Assembly (NCBI GenBank): GCA_025363675.1
Contig: JANYDJ010000160.1
Span: forward strand, 1-58,970
Source of the DNA: Flavobacteriaceae bacterium
Lineage (GTDB): Bacteria > Bacteroidota > Bacteroidia > UKL13-3
Direction: 5' to 3'
DNA length: 58,970 nucleotides
The position numbers and the translations under genes were made by a program. Under the pieces are notes generated by a model. That model had not been told where the DNA came from. It searched no databases and saw only the letters and a list, made by a program, of their open reading frames with translations. How positions within the stretch are numbered: the stretch's first letter is position 1; every line of letters starts with the position of its first letter. Of the stretch, positions 6,001 to 57,758 are shown piece by piece.

Positions 6001-6534
6001 ACTTATATTATATGAATCTTTTAATGCTTTGTATTCGGGACTATTGCGTCGGTTTCCACTTTCGTTTTTCACCAGTTCTTGTAGTTTGATAATGCCATCA
6101 ATAATTTGCTCAGGACGCGGAGGGCAACCCGGCACATATACATCTACAGGAATTACTTTATCAATTCCCTGCAACACAGAATAGGTATCGAAAATACCAC
6201 CACTACTGGCACAGGCACCGATGGCAATTACCCAGCGAGGCTCTGCCATTTGATCATATACTTGTTTCAATACTGGGCCTAGCTTTTTGGCGATGGTTCC
6301 AGCCACCAACAATACATCTGCTTGTCTCGGACTAAAGCTCATACGCTCCATCCCGAAACGGGCCAAGTCGTAGTTAGAACCCATAGTTGCCATAAACTCA
6401 ATGCCGCAGCAAGAAGTGGCGAAAGGCAAAGGCCAAAGAGAATTAGCTCTGGCAAGGCCTATTATCTTATCTACCCCTGTGGCAAAAAAACCAGGACCTT
6501 CAAATCCATCGGGGGCGTTTACCGTCTTTACCAT
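5998..6534 (-). CDS. nuoB: NADH-quinone oxidoreductase subunit B
   Basis: 178 aa with the Cys motifs [14 protein letters not shown] and PGCPPRPE (cluster N2 ligands). Confidence 0.97.
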
Positions 6535-6540
6535 TATTTT

Positions 6541-6638
6541 TAGTTTTTAGTCGTTAGTCAATTAGTCGTTAGTCCTAGTGATTAGTATTCAGAGTTTACA
6601 CCGTCCCGACCATTCGGGAGGTACTAATTACTGATTAC
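6541..6638. repeat. Imperfect palindromic element with 7-nt periodic arms (TAGTCGT-type) around a CCCGACCATTCGGG hairpin, in the nuoB-nuoA spacer
   Basis: The left arm TAGTCGT TAGTCAA(T) TAGTCGT TAGTCCT AGTGAT TAGTATT lies within 6541-6592. The core hairpin CCCGA-CCAT-TCGGG is at 6605-6618. The right arm GTACTAATTACTGATTAC is at 6621-6638 and is partly complementary to the left arm. Confidence 0.7.
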
Positions 6639-6642
6639 TTTT

Positions 6643-40959: not shown

Positions 40960-43900
40960 TTATCTGCTGATAGAAATTTTGATAGGTTTTCCCAACTGCG
41001 GGGCCTGCATTATATATATTCCACTTGGCAGCAATGATACATCAATTTGTGATGAGCCATAGTGGTTCATTTGATATACCGTTCTACCCGATAAGTCTGT
41101 AATCGTTACCAAGGCTGCTGCACTAGTGGGCATGGTGAGTGTAAGCATATTACTTGCGGGCTGTGGAAAGACAGTGATTGGTTTTTGTTCATTAAAATTA
41201 ATATAACAAATAGTACTATATATTTCCTCATTGTAATTGTGGGCTTTTATCCGATAATACAATCCATTTTGTTGTAATAGTTCGCTGCTCAATATATAAT
41301 TATAGTTGTATTTATTTGTATATTTTAATGCGTGTATAACAGCCTGCTGTTCGATAGGGCTAAAATGAGAACCATCGGACGATTGTTCCACTATAAATTC
41401 ATGTTCGTCGGCACTCAATACACATTCCCAATTTAAAAATATTTCTTTGTTAACTTTCCTTCCCGATATACTTAACCATTCCACTGGCAGTGCTTCAAAG
41501 TTCGCATCGCCACTATCGCTGGCCGCAAAAACTGAAAAGCTATTAAAAGGCCCTGCGGCAATATAGTTTCTAATAGAATCGCATGTTCCTGTATTTTTTT
41601 GAAGTACCCAAGGTGCTGTTGGGCTATCATTTTTCTTGGCCATCAGCAACCTTCTCTCGCTATTATATTTTACTGACCCTATAAGTGCTGAATCGTAATA
41701 CAGTTTAATATTATAAGTAAAGCCACTTCCACCTGTGGGTAATAATTGCCAAAAACAATTCATATATTTTGCATTGGGCCGTGTACCATTTTGGGTATTG
41801 TTGGGCGGTGTAACGCCTGTATAATATTTCACATCTACTGATGAAGGCACAGTGCCGGTGCCGCCCCACGACAGGGTGGCAATAGTATCGTCGCCCCATA
41901 TATAAGTGGTGGTGGTGTTAAGTGCGGGGCTTCCATTAGCAGTAGCAGTGGGTGGCGTAGCAGTGGGTGTAAACTCATCCGACCCGATATCGGTGCCATA
42001 GCCATAAATTATGCCTCTTGCATCGCCTGTAAAATCACTATTTATATTTCCGCTTGCACTTCCTGCAATGCCTTTTCCATTAACAAACCAACAATGTGTG
42101 CTACTTACTTTAATAGATAAAATTCCACTGGTTGCATTCGTAAACAGGCTGTCAACAGGCACGTTGGCAGAGGAGGTAGCCCATGAGTTAAGGTCTAAAT
42201 AGGTGGAAGTTATATAACTACTGAATGTGGTATAATTGATGGCATTATATAGAAATTTATTGGTTCCACTATATACGAAAAAATTATGATCACTGTTTAA
42301 TAGGTTGGTACTTGCTCCGTGGTATATCGATAAACCATTGCCCCTGCTATAATAAAATAAATTGTTCTTTACCGTCACACCGTTTCCATATCCATTATCA
42401 CGATAACAAAAATCTACATTAGTTCCCCCCGCTCTGGTACCAGCAATTACAACTGAATTATAATATATCACTGAAGTGCCCGGGCTGGTGTTTATATCAT
42501 AAATACCACCAAGCTGGCTATATCCTCCGCTTGCAGCACTGTTGTCTAAATATATTTGGTTATTATAGGTTTCTTTGGTTCCCGAAGTTTGAAGCACCAT
42601 GGCCGTAGCTTCTGCTCCCGTAGTAGCGGTTACCGCATTGCTTATATCATAGATTCTGTTTTTAATTATTTTTGATGTGCCACCTGTATTAGATAGATAA
42701 ACACCACATACCCGCAATTGGTTGGTACCCGTTGCAGTTCCGCGAATAGCATATATCGTATTCCCATTTATAAGTTGGTTATGATTGGGAGCACTCACAT
42801 TCATTGCTGTGAGATTATATTGTATACCATTATAGGTGGTGGGAGATGAAATATCATGAATTATATTATTATATATACTATCATTGGAACTGCCATTGTG
42901 CGTTGCAGACACATTTGCAAGAGCTTTAAAATAGGGATTGGCCGTGCTGCTGGTAGAGGGTACTAAAATATTAGCGATAGTATTAGAAGAGATACTAATA
43001 TTTTGATTTACTACGGAACTATAATTTATTGCTACAAATTGTGAAGTGGTGGACGAACTGCTTCCCCCAACCGTAATACTATTGGCGGTAGTTGCATGAC
43101 CAATTGTATTGCCATTACCTAAAGAATTACCAATGATATGTTTGCCAGCGGCAGCATTAATTCCTATAAAAATGGGTGTGGCACCTGCACCATTCATATT
43201 TATATTTTGTATAGTATTGTTATATGTATAACAATAATTGTTGGTATCAATTCCACTATTATAATAAATACCATAAAAATTTGCAGAAGTATTAGAAAGG
43301 GTTAACGCTGAGCCACCGCATGAAGCAGCACCGCCGCCAATATAATTTCCACTTATTACAAAACTATCTGCATCATCTAACTGTATACCATATAGGGTAG
43401 CACCAACTAGGGTAGCGGTATCATATATACTATTTCCGCTTATTACATTTCCTGTAGTGGTGCCACTATAATATATACCTGCTGTGGTCCAATTAAAAAT
43501 TTCGTTGTTTGCAAGGTTTACATAACTGGCACCTCGTTGTAAAAATCCATAACTGGGAAAATTGGTGGTTCCACCTGTTGGACTCCTCATTTGGTTCGAT
43601 GATATATATACCCTGTTTGTGCCGCTAACATCGGCATATACTATTGCATTGTTGGCCTGTGTGGTATTGCATTCTATTATACAGTTTCTAAGTGTATCAG
43701 CAGTGGCACCATTGGTGAACATAATGGTAGCATGAGCCGAAGAAGCCGTGGAATGGGTGTTTCTAAATTTTAATTTCTTATTTCCGCCATCAATAATTAC
43801 CCGATCGGCACCATCTATTCTAATCATTTTATTAGCCAGATTTGCACTGTTTGCAATGGTTCTTAAAGTACCATCACTCTGAATAGTTAAGGTATAAGTA

Positions 43901-46900
43901 TTGTTCCCATCATCTATGAATTGGTTAATCGCATTGGTTCCATCTTCCGATAAATCACTTATAACAGTAGCTGTTACATTTCCACTCACCGCATTGTTAT
44001 TTACAAAATTGAAAAAGCCACTTGCCCCAGTTAACGTAGTATAAGTTTGACCCGTGCCTATATTATAATTTCCGCTAATGCCCGATACAATTTTATATGC
44101 AGTGTATTTACTGGGTGCCGTGGTTTGCGATGTTGGATTGCTATGGCTGGCACCGTAGAACGAGCTGTACCATACATTGCCACTAATACTATCCATGGCT
44201 ACTATATAATATGCAAACGAATCGCCCACTGCAGGTGTGATACTATTGCCTGCATAATCGATAGTAAAATTATATATTGCATTATTCGCATTTCCGCTCA
44301 CAAAAGTCCCCACTTTGCTAAACCAACTACTTGTTGATGGATAAGACCTACGCCACCATATACGCGGGGCATTGCCGCCTGGGTTCATTACAATTCCATT
44401 GCCTTGGTCGGTAATGGCAACAGCAAGCGTTCTGTTGGATGTAAGGCTGGTAGAAACAAAATTGGTGAACGAAAAATTAGGAACATATATATCATCGCTG
44501 GTGCCAAAACTATAAGTACCCGCATCTGCTCCAATATCGGTGGGTGTATTAGCACTTAATAACTCTTCTTCAAAATCCACAGTAGATATGCCCAATGCCA
44601 CGCCCATCGCCTCGGCCGAGGTGGTGCTTTGGATATGCATATCCACACAACAAGATCCATTATCAGGCGAAACCAAATCAGGATCGCCAACACCACTGTG
44701 CAAGTCATTAATAATAGGTGTGGTGTTATTATACATCACTTCTCTAAATGCTTTAATAGTAGTATATGCATTGGTCGAGGCCATAAATAATTGCCCACCA
44801 CTTGCCACACTGCTGCTATAATATATATTATAATCGCTGGTGAGCCCCGTTGGGTTGGTACCACTAATTCTGCACACCGTGTGCACACCGCTGCCTCCCA
44901 AACCATTGGAGCGGCTATTTACAAAGATATTGTTTTTTACAGCACGGGTATTAACGGTAACAGAGCTAATAAATGCATAAGTAACTGCACTGCTTGATAC
45001 ACTTACACTACCCCCTACCCACACAGTATGGTGATAGAAATTATTGGTGCCGGCACTTTCATTAATACCATATAATATACAATTTAATCCCACATCGAGA
45101 CCCGATGGTAATTTTCCCATTTGAACAACATTATAATAATAATTAGTAGTACCGCCTGCTGCACTGATACCTGTGACAGTGGCGGTGGTGCTTGTTGACA
45201 CAATAGAAAAAGAATATATATTGTTTTTAGCCACCGCACACCCTGTTGCAGTATTAAAATTACAATAAATGCCCGCAACACTTATTGCCTGGCTTGGTGC
45301 ACTCTCGTATAAATCGTGTATGGCATTTCCCGAGATAGTATCATTATTACCTGTATTGATTGCGGAAATACCAATAAGAGCTGCTAATGCACCAGTACCT
45401 GTTGACCGTGAAGAGCAATAAAAAGTTTCTACTATATTATTTTTTACAGAATAAGACCCGCTCCCCGAAATTAAAATACCTGTAAGGATATTACTGATAC
45501 CCGTATTGCTGTTAGTAATTCCATACATATAATTATTATAAATAGTATGTTGCCCCGAAGCAGAATTGGTAGCATGTATTCCATAAGTAGCATTGTTTGC
45601 AGCACTATTGATAGCATTGCTTAAAGTGGCCCCTCCAAAAATATTGTCTGACACGGTCATTACACCACTGCTTCCTTGCAGCCACACACCTTTCAAAATC
45701 CCGGTGCTGCTTGTGAGAGAAATTCCGCTGATTGTATTATATTGAATGGTTGAATTTCCCAAAGTAGTTCCTGTACTAAATGCAATAGCAGAAAATACTG
45801 CTGAGACATTGCTCAAACTCATACTCAAACTATTTGTAGTATAGTATTCTCCTATATTATTTCCTGTAGTGGTGCCCACATCAAAAGCCCCCGCCACCAG
45901 CGACATAGCTGACTGGGTAGTGGAAGCCGAACTTGAGGTAAATGATATATTTTTAATTACATTGCCTTGAATGCTCGTGTTGGTTCCCGTAGCAACAGAC
46001 AATCTAAAACCCCTAAGCACCCCCGAACCAGTATAGGTGCAAGCAGAACCACCGCAAGAAGCACTGGTGCCTCCCACATAATTATTACTTATTATAAAAC
46101 CATTCCCACTGGCACTGCCATTAATCCTAATAGACGATACTTCATTGCTGGCACCCGAGAGACTTCTGGAAGATGTTTGATAAAAACTATTGCCGTTAAA
46201 TGTCCAGGTAGAAGCCGAGCCATTTGTATATAAATATATTCCCGCTTGATCGGAACCTGCTGAAAAATAATCGAATATTTCTGAATTAACGATACTCACA
46301 TAGTCAGTAGTAGTAGTGCTGTTCACTGCAGTAATACAGCACACAGGAAGATTGCTACCTGAGGGTCCAATTTTACAAGAACTAATATAACAATAGTCAT
46401 TGCCAGTGGAGCCACTCCCTTGATCGAAAGTTACCACACCGGTACCGGCGGTATTGGTACACGATCCTTTTATAGTGGTATTGCGAATGGTATCATAAGT
46501 AGCATCGTTGCTAAAAGTAAAAGCAGTAGCCGAAGTGCCCGTACTGGGGTTGTCGATTGTGAGCTTATTGCCTCCGGTATTAAGTCCATCTATTACTACT
46601 TTGTCGCCTCCATTTATTTGTATAAGTGGGGCGTTCAAACTACTTGCGGTTATACTTCTTGCACTGCCACCGCTTGGACTAATAGTTAAACGAGTCCACA
46701 TTCCTGCTGCTCCAGTAATAGAAATGGTGGCCGCCTCGGTGGTATTTCCTGTTACTGAGATGGAGATATTATTGCCGCTTTGGCTGTTGGTATTCACACA
46801 ATCACAAGCTGCTTTAAGTGTGGTGTAAGTAGTATTGCAACTGCTGGAGCCGCTAACCGATATCTGTGCTTGCACTGCAAAAGCAGTATGAAATACTATG

Positions 46901-46935
46901 ATAGCTGATAGTAGAAGTTTGTATATTTTTTTCAT
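40960..46935 (-). CDS. Giant (1991 aa) parallel beta-helix-type surface protein with T9SS C-terminal sorting domain
   Basis: It has signal peptide MKKIYKLLLSAIIVFHTAFAVQAQ and hundreds of Gly/Asn/Thr/Ser-rich short repeats (N-x-I-x-N/G type). The C-terminus is ITVFPQPASNMLTL...TITDLSGRTVYQ...LPSGIYIMQA...KISISR. Confidence 0.9.
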   Translation of the reverse strand: MKKIYKLLLSAIIVFHTAFAVQAQISVSGSSSCNTTYTTLKAACDCVNTNSQSGNNISISVTGNTTEAATISITGAAGMWTRLTISPSGGSARSITASSLNAPLIQINGGDKVVIDGLNTGGNKLTIDNPSTGTSATAFTFSNDATYDTIRNTTIKGSCTNTAGTGVVTFDQGSGSTGNDYCYISSCKIGPSGSNLPVCCITAVNSTTTTDYVSIVNSEIFDYFSAGSDQAGIYLYTNGSASTWTFNGNSFYQTSSRSLSGASNEVSSIRINGSASGNGFIISNNYVGGTSASCGGSACTYTGSGVLRGFRLSVATGTNTSIQGNVIKNISFTSSSASTTQSAMSLVAGAFDVGTTTGNNIGEYYTTNSLSMSLSNVSAVFSAIAFSTGTTLGNSTIQYNTISGISLTSSTGILKGVWLQGSSGVMTVSDNIFGGATLSNAINSAANNATYGIHATNSASGQHTIYNNYMYGITNSNTGISNILTGILISGSGSYSVKNNIVETFYCSSRSTGTGALAALIGISAINTGNNDTISGNAIHDLYESAPSQAISVAGIYCNFNTATGCAVAKNNIYSFSIVSTSTTATVTGISAAGGTTNYYYNVVQMGKLPSGLDVGLNCILYGINESAGTNNFYHHTVWVGGSVSVSSSAVTYAFISSVTVNTRAVKNNIFVNSRSNGLGGSGVHTVCRISGTNPTGLTSDYNIYYSSSVASGGQLFMASTNAYTTIKAFREVMYNNTTPIINDLHSGVGDPDLVSPDNGSCCVDMHIQSTTSAEAMGVALGISTVDFEEELLSANTPTDIGADAGTYSFGTSDDIYVPNFSFTNFVSTSLTSNRTLAVAITDQGNGIVMNPGGNAPRIWWRRSYPSTSSWFSKVGTFVSGNANNAIYNFTIDYAGNSITPAVGDSFAYYIVAMDSISGNVWYSSFYGASHSNPTSQTTAPSKYTAYKIVSGISGNYNIGTGQTYTTLTGASGFFNFVNNNAVSGNVTATVISDLSEDGTNAINQFIDDGNNTYTLTIQSDGTLRTIANSANLANKMIRIDGADRVIIDGGNKKLKFRNTHSTASSAHATIMFTNGATADTLRNCIIECNTTQANNAIVYADVSGTNRVYISSNQMRSPTGGTTNFPSYGFLQRGASYVNLANNEIFNWTTAGIYYSGTTTGNVISGNSIYDTATLVGATLYGIQLDDADSFVISGNYIGGGAASCGGSALTLSNTSANFYGIYYNSGIDTNNYCYTYNNTIQNINMNGAGATPIFIGINAAAGKHIIGNSLGNGNTIGHATTANSITVGGSSSSTTSQFVAINYSSVVNQNISISSNTIANILVPSTSSTANPYFKALANVSATHNGSSNDSIYNNIIHDISSPTTYNGIQYNLTAMNVSAPNHNQLINGNTIYAIRGTATGTNQLRVCGVYLSNTGGTSKIIKNRIYDISNAVTATTGAEATAMVLQTSGTKETYNNQIYLDNSAASGGYSQLGGIYDINTSPGTSVIYYNSVVIAGTRAGGTNVDFCYRDNGYGNGVTVKNNLFYYSRGNGLSIYHGASTNLLNSDHNFFVYSGTNKFLYNAINYTTFSSYITSTYLDLNSWATSSANVPVDSLFTNATSGILSIKVSSTHCWFVNGKGIAGSASGNINSDFTGDARGIIYGYGTDIGSDEFTPTATPPTATANGSPALNTTTTYIWGDDTIATLSWGGTGTVPSSVDVKYYTGVTPPNNTQNGTRPNAKYMNCFWQLLPTGGSGFTYNIKLYYDSALIGSVKYNSERRLLMAKKNDSPTAPWVLQKNTGTCDSIRNYIAAGPFNSFSVFAASDSGDANFEALPVEWLSISGRKVNKEIFLNWECVLSADEHEFIVEQSSDGSHFSPIEQQAVIHALKYTNKYNYNYILSSELLQQNGLYYRIKAHNYNEEIYSTICYINFNEQKPITVFPQPASNMLTLTMPTSAAALVTITDLSGRTVYQMNHYGSSQIDVSLLPSGIYIMQAPQLGKPIKISISR

Positions 46936-47192: not shown

Positions 47193-50100
47193 ATGCTAGG
47201 TTCGTTAGTTAAAGGATTATCAACGTTGTTCGGCGGTTCAAAGGCCGATCGTGATATGAAAGAGTTCTCCCCGCGGGTAGAAGACATCAACAAACATTTT
47301 GAAAGCTATCAATCCCTATCCGACCAAGGACTAAGGGACAAAACTTTAGAACTCAAAGCTCGAATAGCGGAGTTTCTCAAAGAAATTGACGATGAAATAG
47401 GCGAGCTTGAATCTAACCTACAAGCTACTATTGGTGGCGATATAGGCGAGCGTGACGATATTTTTAAAGCTATCGACAAACTTAAAAAAGACCGCGACGT
47501 AGAGCTCGAAAAAATTCTGGATGTGATACTTCCCGAAGCATTTGCCGTAGTAAAAGATACCGCCCGACGCCTCACCGAAAACAAAGGCATGCGTGTGCCC
47601 GCTACACAAATGGACCGCGAGCTCGCTATCGATTATGATTTTGTAGATATTGAAGGCGATACCGCTATCTATAAAAACCTATGGTCAGCTGCGGGCATTG
47701 AGATTATCTGGAACATGATACACTATGATGTGCAGTTGATTGGTGGTATGGTATTGCACAAAGGAAAAATTGCGGAGATGGCCACTGGTGAAGGAAAAAC
47801 ATTGGTATCCACTTTACCTGCATACCTTAATGCACTAAGCGGACAAGGCGTACACGTAGTAACGGTGAACGATTACCTAGCCCGACGTGACTGCGAGTGG
47901 AATGGTCCTATTTTCCAGTTCCACGGACTGAGTGTTGATTGTATCGATTTCCATGAACCCAATGGCGATGAGCGTCGCAGAGCTTATGCTTGCGATATTG
48001 TATATGGTACCAATAACGAGTTTGGATTCGATTACTTGCGTGACAACATGGCACGCTCAACCGACGACCTGGTTCAACGCAAACATCATTTTGCCATGGT
48101 GGATGAGGTTGACTCCGTTTTGATTGACGATGCCCGAACTCCTTTAATTATTTCTGGCCCAGTGCCCAAAGGCGACGAGCAAGAATATTTTGCTTTGAAA
48201 CCACGTATTGAAAGATTGGTTGAAGCTCAAAAAAAATATATAAATACCGCTTTTAATGATGCTAAAAAATTAATTGCTGAAGGAAAAGAGGAAGAAGGCG
48301 GAAAATTATTATTGCGTTCGCATCGTGGCTTGCCCAAAAATAAAAATATCATTAAATATTTGGGCGAACCCGGAATGAAACAATTCCTTACCAAAATAGA
48401 AAATGTATATTTGGCCGATCAACAAAAACGGATGAACGAAATTGATGAAACTTTATACTTTGTGATAGATGAAAAAAGCAACAGTGTAGAGCTCAAAGAA
48501 AAAGGTGTTGAAATGATTACCGGTGCGGGCGATGATCCCCACTTTTTTATTATGCCCGATGTTGGTGCCTCAATTGCCGAAATAGAAAAATCTGCGGGAA
48601 CTGATGAAGAACGCAAGGCTCGTAAAGAAAATTTGATGCGTGATTTTGCCATTAAATCGGATAGAATACATTCGATAAATCAATTATTAAAAGCATATAC
48701 TTTATTCGAGCGTGATGTTGAATATATAATAGATGGTGGCAAAATAAAAATTGTGGATGAACAAACAGGCCGTGTGCTCGATGGGCGTAGATATTCAGAT
48801 GGTTTACATCAATCTATCGAAGCCAAAGAAAATGTGAAAGTAGAAGCTGCCACGCAAACTTATGCAACGGTTACCTTGCAAAATTATTTCCGTATGTATC
48901 ATAAACTTTGTGGTATGACCGGTACTGCCGAAACAGAAGCTGGAGAGTTGTGGTCGATATATAAATTGGATGTGGTGGTGATACCTACCAACCGCGGTAT
49001 GATAAGAAAAGATTTGAACGATGTAATATATAAAACCACCCGTGAAAAATATAATGGAGCCATCGATGAAATAGTAAAACTACAAAACGAGGGAAGACCT
49101 GTACTTGTAGGTACCACATCGGTTGAGGTTTCTGAGTTATTGAGCCGGATGATGTCGTTACGCAAAATTAAACACAATGTACTGAATGCAAAACAACATC
49201 AACGTGAAGCCGAAGTGGTAGCCGAAGCAGGTATGGCGGGTACCGTTACTATATCAACAAATATGGCTGGTCGTGGTACTGATATTAAACTGGGGCCCGG
49301 CGTAAAAGAAGCTGGTGGCTTGGCTATTCTAGGTACTGAGCGTCACGAAAGTCGCCGTGTGGATAGGCAGTTGCGGGGGCGTGCAGGTAGGCAGGGAGAT
49401 CCGGGTTCATCACGTTTTTATGTATCACTAGAAGATAATTTGATGCGTTTGTTTGGGTCAGATAGAATAGCTGCTATTATGGACAGAATGGGTATGAAAG
49501 AAGGTGATGTGATAGAACATTCTATGATATCAAAATCCATAGAACGTGCTCAGAAAAAAGTAGAGCAAAATAACTTTGGTACCCGTAAAAGATTATTAGA
49601 GTTTGATGATGTAATGAATGCACAACGCGAAGTTATATATAATAAACGCCGCAATGCTTTGTGGGGTGATAAATTGGCGATGGACTTAAATAATATGCTA
49701 TATGATTTTGTAGATGAGCAGGTAAAAGAATATAAAGACGATGCTGATTTAGAAGGATTTAAATTGGAATTTTTGAGAAGCCTCGCATGGGAACCCGCAG
49801 TAGATGCAGGCATGTTCAAATCCATGAACGAAGAAGCTTTGACCGAAGAAATATTTGCACAAGCCAATGCTTATTATAAAGAAAAAGGTGAAACCACGGC
49901 AAGTAATTCTGTACCCGTATTAAAAAATATACAACAGGAAAAAGGCGACCAAATACAATATTTAGGCGTACCATTTACCGATGGTTTGCACAATATGAAT
50001 GTTACAGTCGATTTTAATAAAGCTATAGAAACATCGGGAAAAGAAATAGTATATACTTTTGAAAAGCTGATGGTACTGAACCAAATTGACGAAGAGTGGA

Positions 50101-50507
50101 AAGAACATCTTCGTGAAATGGACGAATTAAAAACAGCAGTATATAATGCCCAGCTTGAGCAAAAAGATCCATTGCTTATCTATAAACTGGAATCGTTTAA
50201 TTTATTCAAATCTATGTTGTCACGTATTAATCGTGATGTGTTGGGCGTATTGTTTAAAAGCCAAGTAGAAGGTCAAACGCAGGTGCGTGAGCAAAAACAA
50301 ATTACCCGTACCCCACAACCTAAATTACAAACGAGCCGTACCGATAACATCAGTGCTACGGGAAATATACAACCCAATTACCAAACCAATGAAGAGGCAC
50401 CTGCAAAACCACAACAAATAAAAGGTGTGATAAAAGTAGGACGCAATGATCCTTGTCCTTGTGGTAGTGGTAAGAAGTTTAAGCAGTGTCATGGGAAAGA
50501 TGAGTAA
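47193..50507 (+). CDS. secA: Preprotein translocase ATPase SecA
   Basis: 1104 aa with MATGEGKTLV, VDEVDSVLIDDARTPLIISG, TNMAGRGTDI and the C-terminal zinc motif CPCGSGKKFKQCHG. Confidence 0.98.
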   Translation: MLGSLVKGLSTLFGGSKADRDMKEFSPRVEDINKHFESYQSLSDQGLRDKTLELKARIAEFLKEIDDEIGELESNLQATIGGDIGERDDIFKAIDKLKKDRDVELEKILDVILPEAFAVVKDTARRLTENKGMRVPATQMDRELAIDYDFVDIEGDTAIYKNLWSAAGIEIIWNMIHYDVQLIGGMVLHKGKIAEMATGEGKTLVSTLPAYLNALSGQGVHVVTVNDYLARRDCEWNGPIFQFHGLSVDCIDFHEPNGDERRRAYACDIVYGTNNEFGFDYLRDNMARSTDDLVQRKHHFAMVDEVDSVLIDDARTPLIISGPVPKGDEQEYFALKPRIERLVEAQKKYINTAFNDAKKLIAEGKEEEGGKLLLRSHRGLPKNKNIIKYLGEPGMKQFLTKIENVYLADQQKRMNEIDETLYFVIDEKSNSVELKEKGVEMITGAGDDPHFFIMPDVGASIAEIEKSAGTDEERKARKENLMRDFAIKSDRIHSINQLLKAYTLFERDVEYIIDGGKIKIVDEQTGRVLDGRRYSDGLHQSIEAKENVKVEAATQTYATVTLQNYFRMYHKLCGMTGTAETEAGELWSIYKLDVVVIPTNRGMIRKDLNDVIYKTTREKYNGAIDEIVKLQNEGRPVLVGTTSVEVSELLSRMMSLRKIKHNVLNAKQHQREAEVVAEAGMAGTVTISTNMAGRGTDIKLGPGVKEAGGLAILGTERHESRRVDRQLRGRAGRQGDPGSSRFYVSLEDNLMRLFGSDRIAAIMDRMGMKEGDVIEHSMISKSIERAQKKVEQNNFGTRKRLLEFDDVMNAQREVIYNKRRNALWGDKLAMDLNNMLYDFVDEQVKEYKDDADLEGFKLEFLRSLAWEPAVDAGMFKSMNEEALTEEIFAQANAYYKEKGETTASNSVPVLKNIQQEKGDQIQYLGVPFTDGLHNMNVTVDFNKAIETSGKEIVYTFEKLMVLNQIDEEWKEHLREMDELKTAVYNAQLEQKDPLLIYKLESFNLFKSMLSRINRDVLGVLFKSQVEGQTQVREQKQITRTPQPKLQTSRTDNISATGNIQPNYQTNEEAPAKPQQIKGVIKVGRNDPCPCGSGKKFKQCHGKDE

Positions 50508-50551
50508 GAAAGCAATAAATCAATTATATTTGCCAATAATAATAATAATAA

Positions 50552-51700
50552 ATGTTAAACTCATTAGACATAAAGAATTACAGAAATCTAAAAAATTTAA
50601 GAATAGATTCCTTAGGAAGGGTAAATCTTATTACTGGTAAAAATAATACTGGTAAATCTACTATTTTAGAAGCAATTGCAATTTATGCAACAAAAGGAGA
50701 TTTAAATCAAATTTATCAGTTACTAGAAGAAAGAGGAGAAAATTTCAAGCATACAGAAGTGGGTAGGCATAGAGAAGGAAATAAGAACACAACAGAGTAC
50801 AACATAAGAACTTTTTCTTCTTTATTTACAAATAGAACGGTCAGTTTTGACCAAGAAGGTATCATATCAATTGGTATTATTGAAAATACGCTTTTTGGAG
50901 AAGAAAAATCTACAGAGGAATCAGTTTCTCTCCGCTTTGTATTATATCATGAAGAAATACAAAAAGACGATCATGGAGTTATGATTAGTAGAAGAAGGAT
51001 TGTTTTAGAAAATGCGATAGACAAACAAATAAGTTATAAAGTGGGAGTAGAGATAAGAGTGGGCAATAGTTCTTTTATTTTACCGCTTGATGAGGATAGG
51101 CCTTATAGATTGGGTTATAGAGGATTGGAGAAAAATGAAAATTTTCAATTTATTCGTACTAGTAATATAGATAAAGAAATAAATGGTAAACTATGGGATC
51201 TTGTAACTTTAACAGAAAAAGAACAATATGTTGTCGATGCATTAAAAATTATTGAACCCTTTACCGAAAGGATTGCATTTATTGAAGAAAACTCGCGAGA
51301 AAGGACAGCTGTTATAAAACTATCAAATTCGCCAATTGTCTTACCATTACTTAGTATGGGTGATGGCATTAATCGAATTTTGACCATTATACTTGCTTTA
51401 GTAAATTCAGACAATGGCTTTTTACTTATTGATGAATTTGAGAATGGTCTTCATTATACAGTACAAGAACAACTTTGGGACATTGTTTTCAATTTAGCTC
51501 AGAAATTAAATGTTCAAGTATTTGTTACGACTCACAGTGAAGATTGCATATCTGGTTTTCAAAATATTTTAAATCGAAAGGACAATTTAGTGGATGGAAA
51601 ACTGATTAGACTTGATAATAAAGAAGGGATTATTAAGCAAGTAGAGTTTGATAAGGAAGAATTAAAAATAGCTGCTGACCGAAATATTGAAATTCGATAA
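50552..51700 (+). CDS. ABC/AAA_21-type ATPase (OLD/AriA/AbiLi-like)
   Basis: 382 aa. Motifs are Walker A GKNNTGKST, signature-like LSMGDGINR, Walker B FLLIDEFENGLH and H-loop VTTHSEDC, with a long insertion between Walker A and the signature. The local sequence is AT-rich. Confidence 0.85.
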   Translation: MLNSLDIKNYRNLKNLRIDSLGRVNLITGKNNTGKSTILEAIAIYATKGDLNQIYQLLEERGENFKHTEVGRHREGNKNTTEYNIRTFSSLFTNRTVSFDQEGIISIGIIENTLFGEEKSTEESVSLRFVLYHEEIQKDDHGVMISRRRIVLENAIDKQISYKVGVEIRVGNSSFILPLDEDRPYRLGYRGLEKNENFQFIRTSNIDKEINGKLWDLVTLTEKEQYVVDALKIIEPFTERIAFIEENSRERTAVIKLSNSPIVLPLLSMGDGINRILTIILALVNSDNGFLLIDEFENGLHYTVQEQLWDIVFNLAQKLNVQVFVTTHSEDCISGFQNILNRKDNLVDGKLIRLDNKEGIIKQVEFDKEELKIAADRNIEIR

Positions 51701-52329
51701 TGTGGGTAAAAGAGAAGTTCAATAAAAAGTTACTAGTAGAGGGAAATGATGACCAACATGTAGTATGGGCATTATGTTTAAAATTTAATATTCCTGAAAC
51801 ATTTGATGTGTTGGAATGTGGGAGCGATAATCAACTTATTCAAGAAATTTCAATAAGATTTAAGCAATCGGAGGTTAATACGGTAGGAATTATTATTGAT
51901 GCTGATACAGATATAAGTAATCGATGGAACTCATTAAAGCAATTGCTAACTACGCTGGGATTTCCTGCACCAAATAATTTATCCAAGGAAGGATTAATAT
52001 TAAAAGATGGAAACAATAAAACTATAGGAGTTTGGATTATGCCAAACAATAATTTGAATGGAATGCTTGAGGATTTCATTTCATTTCTTGTACCAAATGA
52101 TGATCAACTTTTACCAATTGTAAATACAACACTCGATAGTATAGAAGAAAGAGGATTGAATAAATATTTAACTATACATAGATCAAAAGCTGCTATCCAT
52201 TCTTGGCTTGCATGGCAAGAAGACCCAGGCACTCCAATGGGATTAGGTATAACAAAACGGTATCTTACAACTGATCAAGAAACGTGTTCACATTTGATAG
52301 AATGGCTTAAGAAACTATTCAGCGAATAA
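51700..52329 (+). CDS. Small TOPRIM-like protein, partner of the upstream ATPase
   Basis: 209 aa. Its ATG overlaps the upstream TAA by 1 nt (TAATG). LLVEGNDDQHVV supplies a conserved Glu and GIIIDADTD supplies DxD about 53 residues later, which is the TOPRIM pattern. Confidence 0.75.
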   Translation: MWVKEKFNKKLLVEGNDDQHVVWALCLKFNIPETFDVLECGSDNQLIQEISIRFKQSEVNTVGIIIDADTDISNRWNSLKQLLTTLGFPAPNNLSKEGLILKDGNNKTIGVWIMPNNNLNGMLEDFISFLVPNDDQLLPIVNTTLDSIEERGLNKYLTIHRSKAAIHSWLAWQEDPGTPMGLGITKRYLTTDQETCSHLIEWLKKLFSE

Positions 52330-52395
52330 GTCAAATGCATATTATTACTTTATTCAAAAGGTGATAATTATTTTAAAGACAGATTAAACAACCAC

Positions 52396-53229
52396 ATGCA
52401 AATCTTCACCCATAAAAAAGACCTTCAAGAATATTTAAGGAAATGGTTTTCGGGGAACACTATAGGTTTTGTTCCTACCATGGGAGCTTTGCATGCAGGG
52501 CATTTATCATTAATTGAACAATCGAAAAAAAAGTGTGGTGTTACAGTATGTAGCATCTTTGTAAACCCCACGCAGTTCAATGACCCCGCTGATTTAGCCA
52601 AGTATTCAAGACCCATCGAAAATGATATACAATTACTTGAACAAGCAGGTTGCGATATAGTATATAATCCCGATACAAATGATGTATATGATGGTGAACC
52701 AAGTATTATACAAATTGATTTGGGTGGACTGGATAAAGTATTTGAAGGAGCCCAACGACCTGGGCATTTTGATGGGGTAGTTTCCGTTGTAAAAAAATTA
52801 TTTGAAGCCGTAAAACCTACCGATGTTTTCTTCGGGCAAAAAGATTATCAGCAAACTTTGGTGGTGAGAAAAATGATTCGGCAGGAGGATATGTCCATTA
52901 AATTTTATACTTGTCCTACCACACGAGAAGCTGATGGATTGGCCATGAGCAGCCGCAATGCGAGGCTTACTATAGAAGAAAGAGCACAGGCAACTAATAT
53001 ATATAAAGTACTAAAACAAGCTGCCTTAAAACAAGGATTATATACACCTACCCAAGTAGAAGAATATATGCATACTGAACTTAAGAAAAATAGTTTAATG
53101 CAAATAGAATATGCATCTATTGTTGATCCCACAGATTTAAAACCTATTATAGATTGGCAACATGGAGCAGTAATATTGGTGGCAGTAAAAATGCCTTCCA
53201 CCCGTTTAATAGATAATGTAGTATTATAA
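52396..53229 (+). CDS. panC: Pantoate--beta-alanine ligase
   Basis: 277 aa with GFVPTMGALHAGHLSL, FVNPTQF and GHFDGV. Confidence 0.96.
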   Translation: MQIFTHKKDLQEYLRKWFSGNTIGFVPTMGALHAGHLSLIEQSKKKCGVTVCSIFVNPTQFNDPADLAKYSRPIENDIQLLEQAGCDIVYNPDTNDVYDGEPSIIQIDLGGLDKVFEGAQRPGHFDGVVSVVKKLFEAVKPTDVFFGQKDYQQTLVVRKMIRQEDMSIKFYTCPTTREADGLAMSSRNARLTIEERAQATNIYKVLKQAALKQGLYTPTQVEEYMHTELKKNSLMQIEYASIVDPTDLKPIIDWQHGAVILVAVKMPSTRLIDNVVL

Positions 53230-53291: not shown

Positions 53292-54020
53292 ATGAAAGTA
53301 ACTATTATAATACCTGCACGCTACGCATCTACCCGTTTCCCAGGTAAACCTTTAGTTGATCTTGGTGGTAAATCGATGTTGATGCGTGTATATGAGCAAG
53401 CGGGCAAGGCAAAAGGAATTTCTGATATTATTATAGCAACGGATGATACTAAAATACAAGAACATTGTATCAATCACGGAGCCAAAGTTTGCATGACAAG
53501 CACTGATCACCAAACGGGCACAGACCGCTGTGTGGAAGTGATTGAAGGATTTAGCACCAAACCAGATATTATAATAAATGTACAAGGTGACGAACCTTTT
53601 ATACAGCCACAGCAAATAGAACAGTTAATCAATTTATTGCAACAACAACATATACAAATTGCCACGCTTTGCAAAAAAATTGATGCGGTAGAAGATATCA
53701 TAAATCCGAATATTGTTAAAGTTGTAAAATCTACAAAAGATAAGGCATTGTATTTTTCGCGTCAGGCAATTCCTTATTATAGAGATAAACAAATTTCAGA
53801 AATATATTATAAACATTTGGGCATCTATGGTTTCAAAACCGAAACATTTTTACAACTCGCCAAACTTCCGCAAAGCCCACTGGAAAAGGCCGAGAACTTG
53901 GAACAACTTAGATGGTTGGATAATGGTTATGCTATATATTTAGCCGAAACCGATTTCCAAAGTGTGGCGATTGATACACCGGAGGATGTGCAGAAGGCTT
54001 TGGATTTTTTGGGTTTGTAA
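53292..54020 (+). CDS. kdsB: 3-deoxy-manno-octulosonate cytidylyltransferase
   Basis: 242 aa with IIIPARYASTRFPGKPL and NVQGDEP. Confidence 0.95.
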   Translation: MKVTIIIPARYASTRFPGKPLVDLGGKSMLMRVYEQAGKAKGISDIIIATDDTKIQEHCINHGAKVCMTSTDHQTGTDRCVEVIEGFSTKPDIIINVQGDEPFIQPQQIEQLINLLQQQHIQIATLCKKIDAVEDIINPNIVKVVKSTKDKALYFSRQAIPYYRDKQISEIYYKHLGIYGFKTETFLQLAKLPQSPLEKAENLEQLRWLDNGYAIYLAETDFQSVAIDTPEDVQKALDFLGL

Positions 54021-55037: not shown

Positions 55038-57758
55038 TTGGATGATGTTGCCTATGATATTGGAGTAGACATATATGGAAATATATTTATTACTGGACAA
55101 ACAAGGAAATTAAATAACGGTATCGATTTTATTACAAAAAAATACAACAGAGCGGGGACTGAACTGTGGAGTAACAGATACCCTGCCGATGATGAAACCA
55201 AATATGCTAAGGCAAGCAAGTTGTTTGTAAAATCAAATGGGAATGTAATAGTTGCTGGAACTGCTGATAGGACCAATAATTCAGATATAGTTGCAATAGA
55301 ATATGATTCTGTTGGAAGTATTAAATGGGAAAAATATTATAATGGCTCAGGAGACACCAATGATATGGCACTTAGTGTAAAATGCAACAATACTGGTTCT
55401 GTATATATTACCGGAATGTCGAGAGACTTATATGATACTATGAGATATGCAACTATTAAATATGATTATGATATATTAGATCACGAACAGGTTTTAGACA
55501 CAGTTTCAGATACGTCGCAAACTTTATTATACATGAAAGGCGAGATAGTGGCTAGTTTTAAACCTGAGTATGTGAACACAGCAATAGTTGATGATATAGA
55601 ATGGCAATCTGGTATGCTTGATGAAGTTATTCTTGATTCGAATTATGTAAATATGGTATATGAAAAATTGGGGTTGGGGAGTAACTATGAACCTGGCTTG
55701 AAAGTCTATAAGATATTTAAACGCTTGACAACAGGGGACAGCCTTTCTATAACTAGATTAGGAGATACTATCCACATGGAACCATTATGGAGTGCTTTTG
55801 TTTTGGCTATTCCAAGTTCTTTGGGCACTCTAGCAGCAGCCGATAGTCTAAATAGCCTCGATACAATTATTGAATTTGCAGAGCCTAATTATGTGTGTAT
55901 GGGAGCAGTTAGTACCTATGATCCATATTATAGCGAGCAACACTCATTATATGCAAGGTCAACAAATCTAGATGAAAGTATTAATATCGGCCCGGCATGG
56001 GATATTGAAACCGGCAAAAACTATGTTAAGGTTGGCGTCTTGGATTCACCTGTCGATTGGCAACATGAAGAGTTTGGAAATGGTACTTACTCTGGATCTA
56101 AAATTAAAGGTGGAAGGGACTATGTAAACTCTGTAAATGCAGACAAATGGCAAGATTTTGGCGACCATGGAACGGCTTGTGCAGGCATTATTGGTGCATT
56201 TAGGAATAATTACAACTCTAATACTAATGCCTATATTGGAATGGCTGGTATAGCTGGTGGCTCTTTGGGTACTTTTATGAATGGCCCTGCGGGTGTTAAT
56301 CTATATTCATTAGCGATTTTTCAACCTAAGATGGATGGGGGCACTGAAGCTACTATGTCAGATGGCCTAACAGAAGCTTCTTCTTCTTCAACGAACTCGT
56401 ATGGGTTTGGTTTGCATATTGCTAGCTGTAGTTGGATAACACCAGATAACGGCAAAATGCTTTTGAAAGCAGTAAGGAATTGTTATTTAAACGGCTGTGC
56501 TGTTTTTGCAGCAAGAGGGAATATACCAAATAATGTTGGTGTTACGAGCTTAACGGCAAAAATGTACCCAGCATGTTATGGTGATAGGTTGGTATTTAAT
56601 ATTGGAGGAAGTGGGACAGATGGAAAACATAAAATGAACGGATATAATGGAGATGCTTATAGTGAATCTATGTATGATAATGGTGTAGATGTGATAGCAC
56701 CTGGCTCAGCAGATATTGTTTTAACTACAGCCGTTCATAACCCCCCTTTACAAGGGGACGTCTATAGTGCTGATTCAAAATACCAATGGTTTAGCGGCAC
56801 TTCTGCTGCCACCCCCCATGCTGCTGGTGTTGCTGCGTTGATGATGAGCAAGCATAACACCAACAACAACAATAGCTATCCGAATAACCTTCACCCTGAC
56901 GACGTAAAACAGCTATTTAAAAAATATTCTGATGATGTAACAGGTGTAAGTCCAGACCCACCACAAAAATACACCTATGCAACGGGTTATGATATATACA
57001 CAGGATGGGGGCGTATTAACGCTGGTAATTTATTGGTACAGGTCGATAAAAGTAAAGGGCATTTTATACAACATCTTAAAACTCCTACAAAAGTTACAAC
57101 AAGTGCCAGTAGCCCTAGCGGTGTGTTTTTAAGAGACCCAATGAATAGTGCCGGAACCGGGACCTATGATGGTTACCTTTGGACTGTAACACATACTTAC
57201 AATTATACTCTCCCTTCCAGTACTTATCAGATTATTGGTAACTGGCCTATTAATTGCCTCGACAATCTGGGTCTTGGGAGCAGCACTTATATCACAAATA
57301 CACCATTTACATCTAGCACAGTAACTGTATCTGGGTTGAACGTCACTGTAGTCACAGTCACTTATTGTTGGCATTTGACTTATAAATACGGCAATGGGGC
57401 TACAGATTATTGGTTGCCTCAATATGTTGACGATATTTCTGAAGACTGGTCATTGCAAATGTATGACCCAACACTTACTTCGGTTGGACAAAAACCAATA
57501 ATTGCAGTAAGTGAATTAATAATTTATCCCAACCCTTCATCAAATATTGCAAACATAAACTATGGTTTCAATTATGAACCAAAAACATTGAATATTGATG
57601 TTTACGATTTAACAGGTAAATTTGTATCGCATATACAAAATTATAAGAAAAATACAGACAATATTAGTTTCGATATTGGGGATTGGGGGGCTGGGCTTTA
57701 TATAGTAAATATAAGAACAGATAGGGAGACACTGGTGAGAAAGTTTATTAAAGACTAA
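55038..57758 (+). CDS. C-terminal fragment: beta-propeller repeats + subtilisin-like S8 peptidase + T9SS sorting domain
   Basis: 906 aa from a TTG start. The S8 triad contexts are VGVLDSPVD, GDHGTACAGIIGA and SGTSAATPHAAGVAALM. The C-terminus is LIIYPNPSSNIANINYG...VYDLTGKFV...GLYIVNIRTD...KFIKD. There is no signal peptide of its own. Confidence 0.85.
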   Translation: MDDVAYDIGVDIYGNIFITGQTRKLNNGIDFITKKYNRAGTELWSNRYPADDETKYAKASKLFVKSNGNVIVAGTADRTNNSDIVAIEYDSVGSIKWEKYYNGSGDTNDMALSVKCNNTGSVYITGMSRDLYDTMRYATIKYDYDILDHEQVLDTVSDTSQTLLYMKGEIVASFKPEYVNTAIVDDIEWQSGMLDEVILDSNYVNMVYEKLGLGSNYEPGLKVYKIFKRLTTGDSLSITRLGDTIHMEPLWSAFVLAIPSSLGTLAAADSLNSLDTIIEFAEPNYVCMGAVSTYDPYYSEQHSLYARSTNLDESINIGPAWDIETGKNYVKVGVLDSPVDWQHEEFGNGTYSGSKIKGGRDYVNSVNADKWQDFGDHGTACAGIIGAFRNNYNSNTNAYIGMAGIAGGSLGTFMNGPAGVNLYSLAIFQPKMDGGTEATMSDGLTEASSSSTNSYGFGLHIASCSWITPDNGKMLLKAVRNCYLNGCAVFAARGNIPNNVGVTSLTAKMYPACYGDRLVFNIGGSGTDGKHKMNGYNGDAYSESMYDNGVDVIAPGSADIVLTTAVHNPPLQGDVYSADSKYQWFSGTSAATPHAAGVAALMMSKHNTNNNNSYPNNLHPDDVKQLFKKYSDDVTGVSPDPPQKYTYATGYDIYTGWGRINAGNLLVQVDKSKGHFIQHLKTPTKVTTSASSPSGVFLRDPMNSAGTGTYDGYLWTVTHTYNYTLPSSTYQIIGNWPINCLDNLGLGSSTYITNTPFTSSTVTVSGLNVTVVTVTYCWHLTYKYGNGATDYWLPQYVDDISEDWSLQMYDPTLTSVGQKPIIAVSELIIYPNPSSNIANINYGFNYEPKTLNIDVYDLTGKFVSHIQNYKKNTDNISFDIGDWGAGLYIVNIRTDRETLVRKFIKD

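Follow-up and report, generated by a model that had tools for sequence, protein, structure and literature searches.

A stretch of 58,970 nt from a Flavobacteriaceae bacterium (GenBank assembly GCA_025363675.1, contig JANYDJ010000160.1, positions 1 to 58,970 of the forward strand; referred to below as the window, at its full length) harbours a cassette of two genes, A and B, between secA and panC. We consider it likely that this cassette is a horizontally acquired, self-promoted conflict module, defensive or toxin-antitoxin-like, of the split class in which an ABC (ATP-binding cassette) ATPase is encoded next to an OLD-type Toprim nuclease, and that it works like the split OLD-family systems. 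It forms an acquired island of ~1.85 kb where the DNA around it is otherwise of housekeeping character, in a lineage of Bacteroidota that has been sampled poorly. An initial annotation, made from the sequence alone, had singled out the pair as a candidate split OLD-family defence module composed of an ABC/AAA_21 ATPase and a Toprim-like protein. This description has held: protein A matches AAA_15/AAA_21 as well as AbiLi and AriA profiles, and protein B shows an OLD-type residue pattern and predicted fold, with sub-threshold Toprim profile matches among its relatives. The cassette is laid out as follows.

50525-50532, forward strand: TATATTTG, putative -7 element of a promoter of the Bacteroidetes type (consensus TAnnTTTG), lying 27 nt upstream of the gene A start codon
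50552-51700, forward strand: gene A, 382-aa ABC-type (AAA_15/AAA_21, SMC/Rad50-like) ATPase, PADLOC PDC-M38A, AbiLi-like
51698-51702, forward strand: TAATG stop/start overlap of A and B, read from the sequence; the A stop TAA lies at 51698-51700 and the B ATG at 51700-51702, with 1 nt in common
51700-52329, forward strand: gene B, 209-aa DUF3226 protein, PADLOC PDC-M38B; putative minimal OLD-type Toprim nuclease (Toprim core plus helical region)

The cassette is a member of PADLOC PDC-M38 and of Pfam DUF3226, a family that has been catalogued already and is not new. Both proteins match the PDC-M38 profiles end to end. Protein A aligns over residues 1-382 with positions 1-383 of the 383-position PDC-M38A profile (PDLC04611; E = 1.8e-100), and protein B over residues 6-208 with positions 11-219 of the 220-position PDC-M38B profile (PDLC04624; E = 2.3e-67). 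The two genes are adjacent, lie on the same strand and form an operon through the 1-nt overlap, which the initial annotation had read correctly, and nothing structural sets them apart from PDC-M38. The PDC set of PADLOC comprises 145 phage-defence candidates predicted by guilt-by-embedding, from copies within BREX, DISARM or type I restriction-modification (R-M) loci, whereas the window copy stands alone between housekeeping genes. The PDC or Hma-embedded candidates (HEC) assayed by others do not include M38.

From its motifs and profile matches, the product of gene A is predicted to be an ABC ATPase of the AAA_15/21 group, SMC/Rad50-like and with a complete catalytic apparatus. Pfam assigns AAA_15 (E = 1.1e-24) and AAA_21 (E = 1.1e-18), with SMC_N and AAA_23 also matching, and the nearest database relative is 79% identical. 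The four ATPase motifs that the initial annotation had read are all present, and so is the insertion of about 230 residues between the Walker A motif and the signature (233 residues from K35 to S268).

50636-50662, forward strand: Walker A (P-loop) GKNNTGKST, residues 29-37; G29, N31, N32, T33, G34, K35 and S36 invariant in 39 homologues
51350-51367, forward strand: ABC signature-like LSMGDG, residues 267-272; S268, G270, D271 and G272 invariant in 39 homologues
51422-51454, forward strand: Walker B / D-loop LLIDEFENGLH, residues 291-301; D294, E295, F296, E297, N298, G299 and L300 invariant in 39 homologues
51527-51538, forward strand: H-loop TTHS, residues 326-329; T326, T327, H328 and S329 invariant in 39 homologues

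Protein A also aligns over its full length with the AbiLi profile of PADLOC (PDLC02336; E = 2e-57, residues 1-382 on positions 1-340 of 340). Two AriA profiles match far more weakly than PDC-M38A and AbiLi do (1.6e-25 and 2.2e-24), HEC-01A matches at ~1e-16, and the protein is more alike the AbiLi and AriA profiles than those of GajA or OLD. In a sequence search of the PDB, AriA chains were recovered at 9e-9, over the conserved ends only. NCBIfam holds no model specific for protein A or protein B, and in PHROGs protein A matches generic ATPase families only and protein B no family. An AlphaFold2 (AF2) model of protein A, with a pLDDT (predicted local distance difference test) score of 74.8, finds its fold matches among a retron I-A/PtuA-like ATPase, Rad50, SMC, GajA and AriA heads, and PtuA, at E values of 1e-11 to 1e-7; the AriA structure 8v47 ranks 34th (3.4e-7), and the fold is not specifically near AriA. 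Beta structure is predicted for most of the ~230-residue insert, two segments of which are of low confidence, and by analogy the insert is likely to be a sensor or oligomerisation module. Within the insert, the part at 50834-51085 (residues ~95-178) is modelled mostly as beta-strands with a pLDDT of about 74-83, and disordered segments (66-79 and 182-198) lie on either side of it.

The best reading of protein B is that of a minimal and divergent Toprim nuclease of the OLD type, a prediction on which five lines of evidence agree (structure model, fold comparison, conservation, secondary Pfam matches and hhalign), each of them moderate alone. Pfam assigns it to DUF3226 (PF11536; E = 3.6e-70, 236.4 bits against a cut-off of 27, profile positions 2-207 of 208), one of the families that the initial annotation had listed for a Pfam search. 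Its nearest database relative is 71% identical, and besides PDC-M38B its only PADLOC match is a marginal one to HEC-01B (E = 0.032) over the N-terminal Toprim motifs. The 209 residues are a normal size for DUF3226 (profile length 208) and about that of the OLD catalytic C-terminal region (204-206 residues in 6njx and 6njv); because of this, the argument of the initial annotation that an unusually small Toprim partner marks a distinct variant fails.

A profile search of 1.84 billion representatives returned 3,446 clusters (50% identity) of the B family at E <= 1e-3, and conservation was scored in 131 diverse representatives that are 32-54% identical to protein B. E14, D67, G110, W112, P115, G121 and K163 are invariant in this set, and G15, D18, A68, D69 and E124 are at least 90% conserved. 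The motifs are also invariant in 47 close homologues, and E124/D125 are invariant in close relatives. G42, the glycine after strand 2, is conserved in at least 90% of close relatives and is the majority residue, at below 90%, among the 131. Chance does not account for the motifs of either protein: those of A are invariant among the 39 ATPase homologues, those of B among the 47 close homologues, and E14, D67 and K163 also in all 131 representatives. LLVEGNDD near the N-terminus and IIIDADTD further on, which had first suggested a Toprim arrangement with a spacing of ~53 residues, indeed place E14 and D67 53 residues apart.

51739-51753, forward strand: E14 (end of strand 1) and D18 (E+4), in LLVEGNDD (residues 11-18); assigned by conservation, by order and spacing (Bp OLD E400/E404) and by hhalign to LLVEGETE of YbjD
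51898-51906, forward strand: DxD of D67-A68-D69 (after strand 3), in IIIDADTD (residues 64-71); assigned by conservation and by hhalign to DGD of YbjD, and corresponding to Bp OLD D455/D457
52069-52074, forward strand: E124-D125, where helix 123-130 begins; candidate ligand of metal B corresponding to Bp OLD E508, by order and spacing only
52186-52188, forward strand: K163, in helix 158-171; candidate catalytic lysine corresponding to Bp OLD K562, invariant, and aligned by hhalign with the SKP lysine that is invariant in the C-terminal region of YbjD

The active site of Bp OLD is built from E400, E404 (E+4) and D455/D457, from T506/E508 where the helical domain begins, and from K562. Protein B appears to mirror E400/E404/D455/D457/E508/K562 in order and spacing (E14, then D18 at +4, D67/D69 at +53, E124 at +55, and K163), a correspondence drawn from alignment and spacing. 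In the AF2 model of B (pLDDT 81.7; predicted template modelling score, pTM, 0.76), a beta-alpha-beta-alpha-beta-alpha core is followed by helices, an order of elements in keeping with a Toprim fold; E14 ends strand 9-15, D67xD69 follows strand 61-66, E124 starts a helix and K163 lies in a later helix. When this model was compared with 350,542 PDB chains by Foldseek, the best two matches, 6njx and 6njv, both came from the OLD protein of Xanthomonas campestris and represent its catalytic C-terminal region. Below these came generic flavodoxin- or Rossmann-like folds; no PDB match reached E <= 1e-3, and AriB structures were not among the top 50. Foldseek against the viral BFVD likewise gave none at E <= 1e-3, with a few Toprim or primase entries amid noise. 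No solved DUF3226 structure was detectable by sequence in the PDB, where B alone returned nothing and a 47-sequence profile only a spurious ubiquilin match (E = 0.86).

A Pfam scan of the 131 relatives of B matched DUF3226 in 131/131 and OLD-like_TOPRIM in 35, below threshold (best 4.5e-4), followed by DUF4435 in 8, RloB in 2, OLD-like_TOPRIM_1 in 2 and Toprim in 1; no unrelated family was matched by more than 4 members. When the DUF3226 profile was compared by hhalign with YbjD, a class 1 OLD protein of E. coli, B residues 8-85 aligned with YbjD 379-456, spanning the OLD-like_TOPRIM domain of YbjD (376-440). A comparison with a 24-sequence profile of the YbjD C-terminal region paired E14 with the Toprim Glu, D18 with E+4, DAD with DGD, and K163 with the invariant SKP lysine. 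As a separate observation, residues 176-189 of B (PGTPMGLGITKRYL; 52225-52266 in the window) are among the most conserved stretches of DUF3226 (WLAWQ..PG.P.G.AIT), and residues 177-189 are the only segment of B that AF2 cannot place (pLDDT <50). This conserved, unmodelled loop could be an ATPase-docking or substrate-binding element.

How the cassette relates to known systems turns on its effector. AbiL of Lactococcus (AbiLi + AbiLii) and RloAB likewise have two genes, for an ABC ATPase and a separate OLD-like Toprim effector, and it is AbiLi that A matches over its full length. The predicted fold of AbiLii was found to superpose best on Xcc OLD 6NJV (2026 review), a structure that is also one of the top two PDB matches of B. 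However, B has no AbiLii match in PADLOC (E <= 1) and no RloB match, RloB being found in 2/131 relatives and there below threshold; B is smaller than the AbiLii/RloB effector and of a different Toprim family. Strict AbiL membership was rejected, the ATPase being AbiLi-like but the effector not AbiLii/RloB. PARIS (AriA + AriB), the proposed class 4 of OLD, shares the plan of a split ABC ATPase and Toprim nuclease and is the only such system with a worked-out mechanism: an AriA hexamer sequesters three AriB (AriA6:AriB3), and ATP-dependent detection of a trigger frees AriB, which cleaves tRNA-Lys. Measured against the solved AriA chains, which have 464 aa, the ATPase of the cassette falls ~80 residues short, and it is much nearer the PDC-M38A and AbiLi profiles. 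AriB is a DUF4435 Toprim protein of about 35 kDa, whereas the 209-aa B has no AriB/DUF4435 match (E <= 1). PARIS also often occurs in viral genomes, whereas no phage-borne copies of the DUF3226 pair were found in the phage collections searched. PARIS membership was rejected, too, as B is not AriB/DUF4435.

Because the effector family differs, the cassette is neither PARIS nor AbiL proper, and the "PARIS/AbiL-like" label of the initial annotation stands for the split architecture and for the AbiLi-like ATPase, but not for B. OLD classes 1-2 (P2 Old, Ts/Bp/Xcc OLD and E. coli YbjD) and GajA combine an ABC ATPase with a Toprim domain to which further metal-B ligands and, within a helical region, a catalytic lysine are added, a plan that the cassette appears to share. 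They carry ATPase and Toprim in a single polypeptide, whereas the window cassette has two genes; it is not a canonical OLD system (classes 1-3) because ATPase and nuclease are separate genes. No ATPase-DUF3226 fusion was found in the 120 closest ATPase homologues (373-394 aa) or in the top 150 DUF3226 representatives (<=251 aa). HEC-01, an ABC ATPase with a separate TOPRIM protein, follows the same two-gene logic at distant similarity.

The pair is translationally coupled and always travels together: the 1-nt overlap recurs in 7/10 cassette loci from two phyla, and the gap is 0-4 nt in the remaining three. The distribution of the cassette is patchy and mobile, and the cassette is probably horizontally acquired. 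In Bacteroidota the same A+B pair occurs as a solo cassette at seven different chromosomal sites.

Window cassette, Flavobacteriaceae bacterium: secA upstream, panC downstream
L001, Flavobacterium oreochromis: trpA upstream, two small open reading frames and then CAT downstream
L002, metagenome: thioredoxin upstream, MFS downstream
L003, metagenome-assembled genome: pyrimidine-catabolism genes upstream, an oxidoreductase downstream
L167, metagenome: PMT_2 upstream, Rrf2 downstream
L169, metagenome-assembled genome: MlaD upstream, a carboxyl transferase downstream
L171, metagenome: Y1 transposase upstream, araA downstream

None of these seven loci contains an integrase or a defence island. At L171, a 112-aa transposase gene of the Y1 (IS200/REP-associated) type lies at 6302-6640, ~200 nt upstream of the cassette and on the opposite strand, and this locus recurs in many samples; it is the only mobility gene seen beside any chromosomal copy. 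More distant copies, in which B is 24-39% identical, extend to small replicons of Gammaproteobacteria. A ColE1-type plasmid of Klebsiella, 4.1 kb in size, has the pair as its only cargo, and Acinetobacter plasmids of 13-14 kb bear it as well. In E. coli it was found in 9/5,426 genomes, only on plasmids of 3.8-4.7 kb (NZ_CP093231.1, for example) and never on the chromosome. The Plesiomonas copy is on a replicon of 396 kb, ~3.3 kb beyond the point where the tail genes of a prophage end. The same prophage (Plesiomonas shigelloides NZ_CP027853.1) carries, at 216406-219824 (L177 1407-4825), between its lysis genes and terminase, a pair annotated as 'AAA family ATPase' and 'S8 family peptidase' with overlapping ends, which looks like a second cargo or candidate defence module.

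The base composition agrees with acquisition. The GC (guanine plus cytosine) content is 0.310 in the cassette, 0.400 in the 5 kb upstream, 0.372 in the 5 kb downstream and 0.371 in the whole window, in line with the earlier remark that the pair is more AT-rich than its flanks, and it is lower in the cassette than in the remainder of the locus at 10/10 loci from two phyla. Pfam confirms the flanking genes, among them the secA and panC that the initial annotation had named.

47193-50507: SecA gene, upstream flank
52396-53229: pantoate-beta-alanine ligase gene (panC), downstream flank
53292-54020: CMP-KDO-synthetase-type cytidylyltransferase gene, beyond panC

A functional tie of the cassette to secA or panC, which the initial annotation had also denied, was rejected because the neighbours of the cassette differ at every other locus. 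The secA-panC adjacency itself is not conserved in Bacteroidota: at 80 panC loci from genomes of this phylum, neither secA nor kdsB nor the cassette lies within 7 kb of panC in any case. In 185,579 species genomes (80 best matches) and in JGI metagenomes, relatives of the panC product are at most about 50% identical; no close relative of the host was thus found with which an empty site could be compared, and the host seems to come from a lineage of Bacteroidota that is poorly sampled. The only other contig with an identical ATPase, from a second sequencing run, shows the same arrangement. Since the pair lies at different loci and has a lower GC content than its surroundings, it is not the strictly conserved locus of host-like composition that the initial annotation had named as the opposing pattern.

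The cassette also seems to bring its own promoter. TAnnTTTG, the -7 element of the Bacteroides primary sigma factor, lies 20-27 nt upstream of the ATPase ATG in 6/7 Bacteroidota loci, against a background expectation of ~0.0055 per 10-nt window, and this recurrence above background is what suggests a promoter carried by the cassette. The motif was used because a sigma-70 model is wrong for Bacteroidota; a sigma-70 promoter and terminator scan gave sites no more numerous than in shuffled sequence. At L002 (6820-6867) and L003 (6820-6867), the ~45 nt upstream of the ATPase gene are recognisably alike (gaaaaTTGacgaa..TAnCTTTG..aaaaaatATG) despite unrelated neighbourhoods, which suggests that the promoter region travels together with the cassette, whose left boundary it would mark. 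A search for insertion scars found no convincing terminal inverted or direct repeats at the cassette. An imperfect inverted repeat of 19 nt (50529-50547 and 52340-52358; 74% complementary, AT-rich and of low complexity) brackets the pair, ending 5 nt before the ATPase ATG and starting 11 nt after the B stop; it is probably due to chance because it is 1 of 29 comparable pairs in 2.3 kb.

By analogy with PARIS and AbiL, the cassette most likely encodes a sensor ATPase that restrains a nuclease toxin. The ATPase would oligomerise, bind the nuclease and hold it inactive, as in PARIS and in pairs of an AAA antitoxin and a TOPRIM_OLD toxin; such AAA antitoxins neutralise their TOPRIM_OLD toxins, and the pairs have been validated experimentally. 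With the ~230-residue insert as the sensor, a cue from a phage or another invading element would be detected in an ATP-dependent manner, and the nuclease would be freed or activated. It might then cut nucleic acid, either by nicking or degrading DNA, as OLD and GajA do, or by cleaving tRNA, as AriB does, and the outcome would be cell arrest or destruction of the invader.

Several observations weigh against this reading. The sequestration-and-release step is pure analogy, and the Toprim assignment of B rests on matches that are individually weak: 6njx is matched over the full length with a probability of 0.99 but at E = 6e-3 and with a template modelling score of 0.46 (<0.5); hhalign against a 24-sequence profile of the YbjD C-terminal region gives P = 1e-3 and a probability of about 21-22% and does not align E124 with the D-x-E motif of YbjD; and the window protein itself has no Toprim-family Pfam match at E <= 1. 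All seven Bacteroidota loci (7/7) place the cassette among housekeeping genes and not in a defence island, and 10 larger open reading frames elsewhere in the window (218-36597) match no PADLOC profile. Carriage by phages was detected neither by tblastn of B against 50,697 phage records nor by a scan of IMG/VR with the B profile. HEC-01 gave no defence in one study and protection from one or more phages in another. Finally, we found no paper mentioning DUF3226, PF11536 or PDC-M38, so that of the "distinct, uncharacterised variant" proposed by the initial annotation the second adjective has stood, while the first is tempered by the existing PDC-M38 and DUF3226 entries.

The solo chromosomal copies, away from defence islands, and the small plasmids also fit a module of plasmid or genomic addiction (toxin-antitoxin), or of competition between elements, that favours its carrier, with B as the toxin, A as the antitoxin, and the nuclease set free when the cassette is lost or a competing replicon arrives. 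The pair is essentially the only cargo of the Klebsiella plasmid, in E. coli it is confined to plasmids of similar size and on the Acinetobacter plasmids it recurs, and AAA + TOPRIM_OLD pairs do act as toxin-antitoxin pairs in experiments. Such a module overlaps mechanistically with the defence cassette that we favour, however, PARIS itself having been described as toxin-antitoxin-like; the PADLOC nomination, moreover, came from copies embedded in BREX, DISARM or type I R-M loci, and one copy sits just past prophage tail genes. We regard pure addiction or competition as unlikely, if still of some weight. A constitutive ATPase-nuclease complex similar to fused OLD or Gabija, acting on invading DNA as an ATP- or nucleotide-gated nickase or exonuclease with neither toxin release nor abortive infection, strikes us as less probable again. 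Its appeal lies in the affinities of B to the Toprim regions of OLD classes 1/2 (6njx, YbjD, PF20469) and not to AriB/DUF4435, in the apparent retention by B of the two-metal-plus-lysine set on which Bp OLD depends to cleave DNA processively, and in the tight translational coupling, which suits an obligate complex. The separate genes tell against it, as no fusion turned up among the 120 closest ATPase homologues or the top 150 DUF3226 representatives, and so does an ATPase that is nearer the AbiLi/AriA profiles than the GajA/OLD profiles. Because the affinities of B lie with OLD class 1/2 and not with AriB, nicking or degradation of DNA inside a stable complex is nevertheless a live alternative for the effector step.

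That the pair does housekeeping DNA repair or recombination, like RecF + RecR or SbcCD, with no role in genetic conflict, we consider highly improbable. Protein A does give weak N-terminal matches to the RecF, Rad50, SbcC and RecN models of NCBIfam and has a Rad50/SMC-like head fold, and RecR is also a small Toprim protein. But with the RecF equivalog TIGR00611, whose cut-off is 172 bits, protein A reaches 40.4 bits, and the match is confined to residues 2-47, the P-loop region; the location varies among genomes, the GC content is below that of every host locus, tiny plasmids carry the pair and one copy adjoins a prophage, 0/80 Bacteroidota panC loci have the pair nearby, and B conserves OLD-type nuclease residues. 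A RecF/RecR-like housekeeping function was accordingly rejected on the RecF score, the mobile distribution and the OLD-type residues. A somewhat broader proposal, which we advance tentatively and as possible rather than probable, is that the DUF3226 pairs make up a fifth branch of the split OLD-family systems, distinct and very large (>3,400 clusters, clustered at 50% identity), with the smallest known stand-alone OLD-type nuclease and a function that does not copy PARIS. As one possibility, what the AbiLi-like ATPase senses might be DNA ends or foreign replicons and not anti-restriction proteins, and the system would then act mainly in plasmid-plasmid or plasmid-phage competition. Such a role would explain both the ColE1-type plasmids of ~4 kb with the pair as sole cargo and the solo chromosomal copies.

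Elsewhere in the window, the SecA protein encoded at 47193-50507 is long (1104 aa), and its DEAD-like domain match runs over residues 15-587 on a 290-position profile; as this match is far longer than the profile, a large insertion in the motor domain is implied. The reverse strand at 40960-46935 encodes a 1991-aa repeat-rich secreted protein whose C-terminus resembles, by eye, a type IX secretion sorting domain, and the forward strand at 55038-57758 encodes a 906-aa S8 subtilase with a confirmed Por_Secre_tail domain. Both large secreted-protein genes indicate a Bacteroidota host with a type IX secretion system. No tRNA gene and no Rfam family at the gathering threshold was found in the window (1-58970).

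The split ABC ATPase plus Toprim nuclease is an established theme of bacterial immunity (OLD, Gabija, PARIS, AbiL, HEC-01), and whether other ATPase + Toprim pairs operate in the manner of PARIS is a question raised by recent reviews. The family is big and little studied, and a specialist would not be surprised by the cassette. The DUF3226 branch is a large one, with its 3,446 clusters and with examples that span Bacteroidota and Gammaproteobacteria, on chromosomes, on small plasmids and next to a prophage. For this branch a concrete predicted active site can now be given, comprising E14, D18, D67, D69, E124 and K163 of B, plus the Walker A lysine K35 of the ATPase. If the assignment is right, the effector is essentially a bare OLD catalytic region, and the pair would offer a compact model for how an ATPase controls an OLD-type nuclease.

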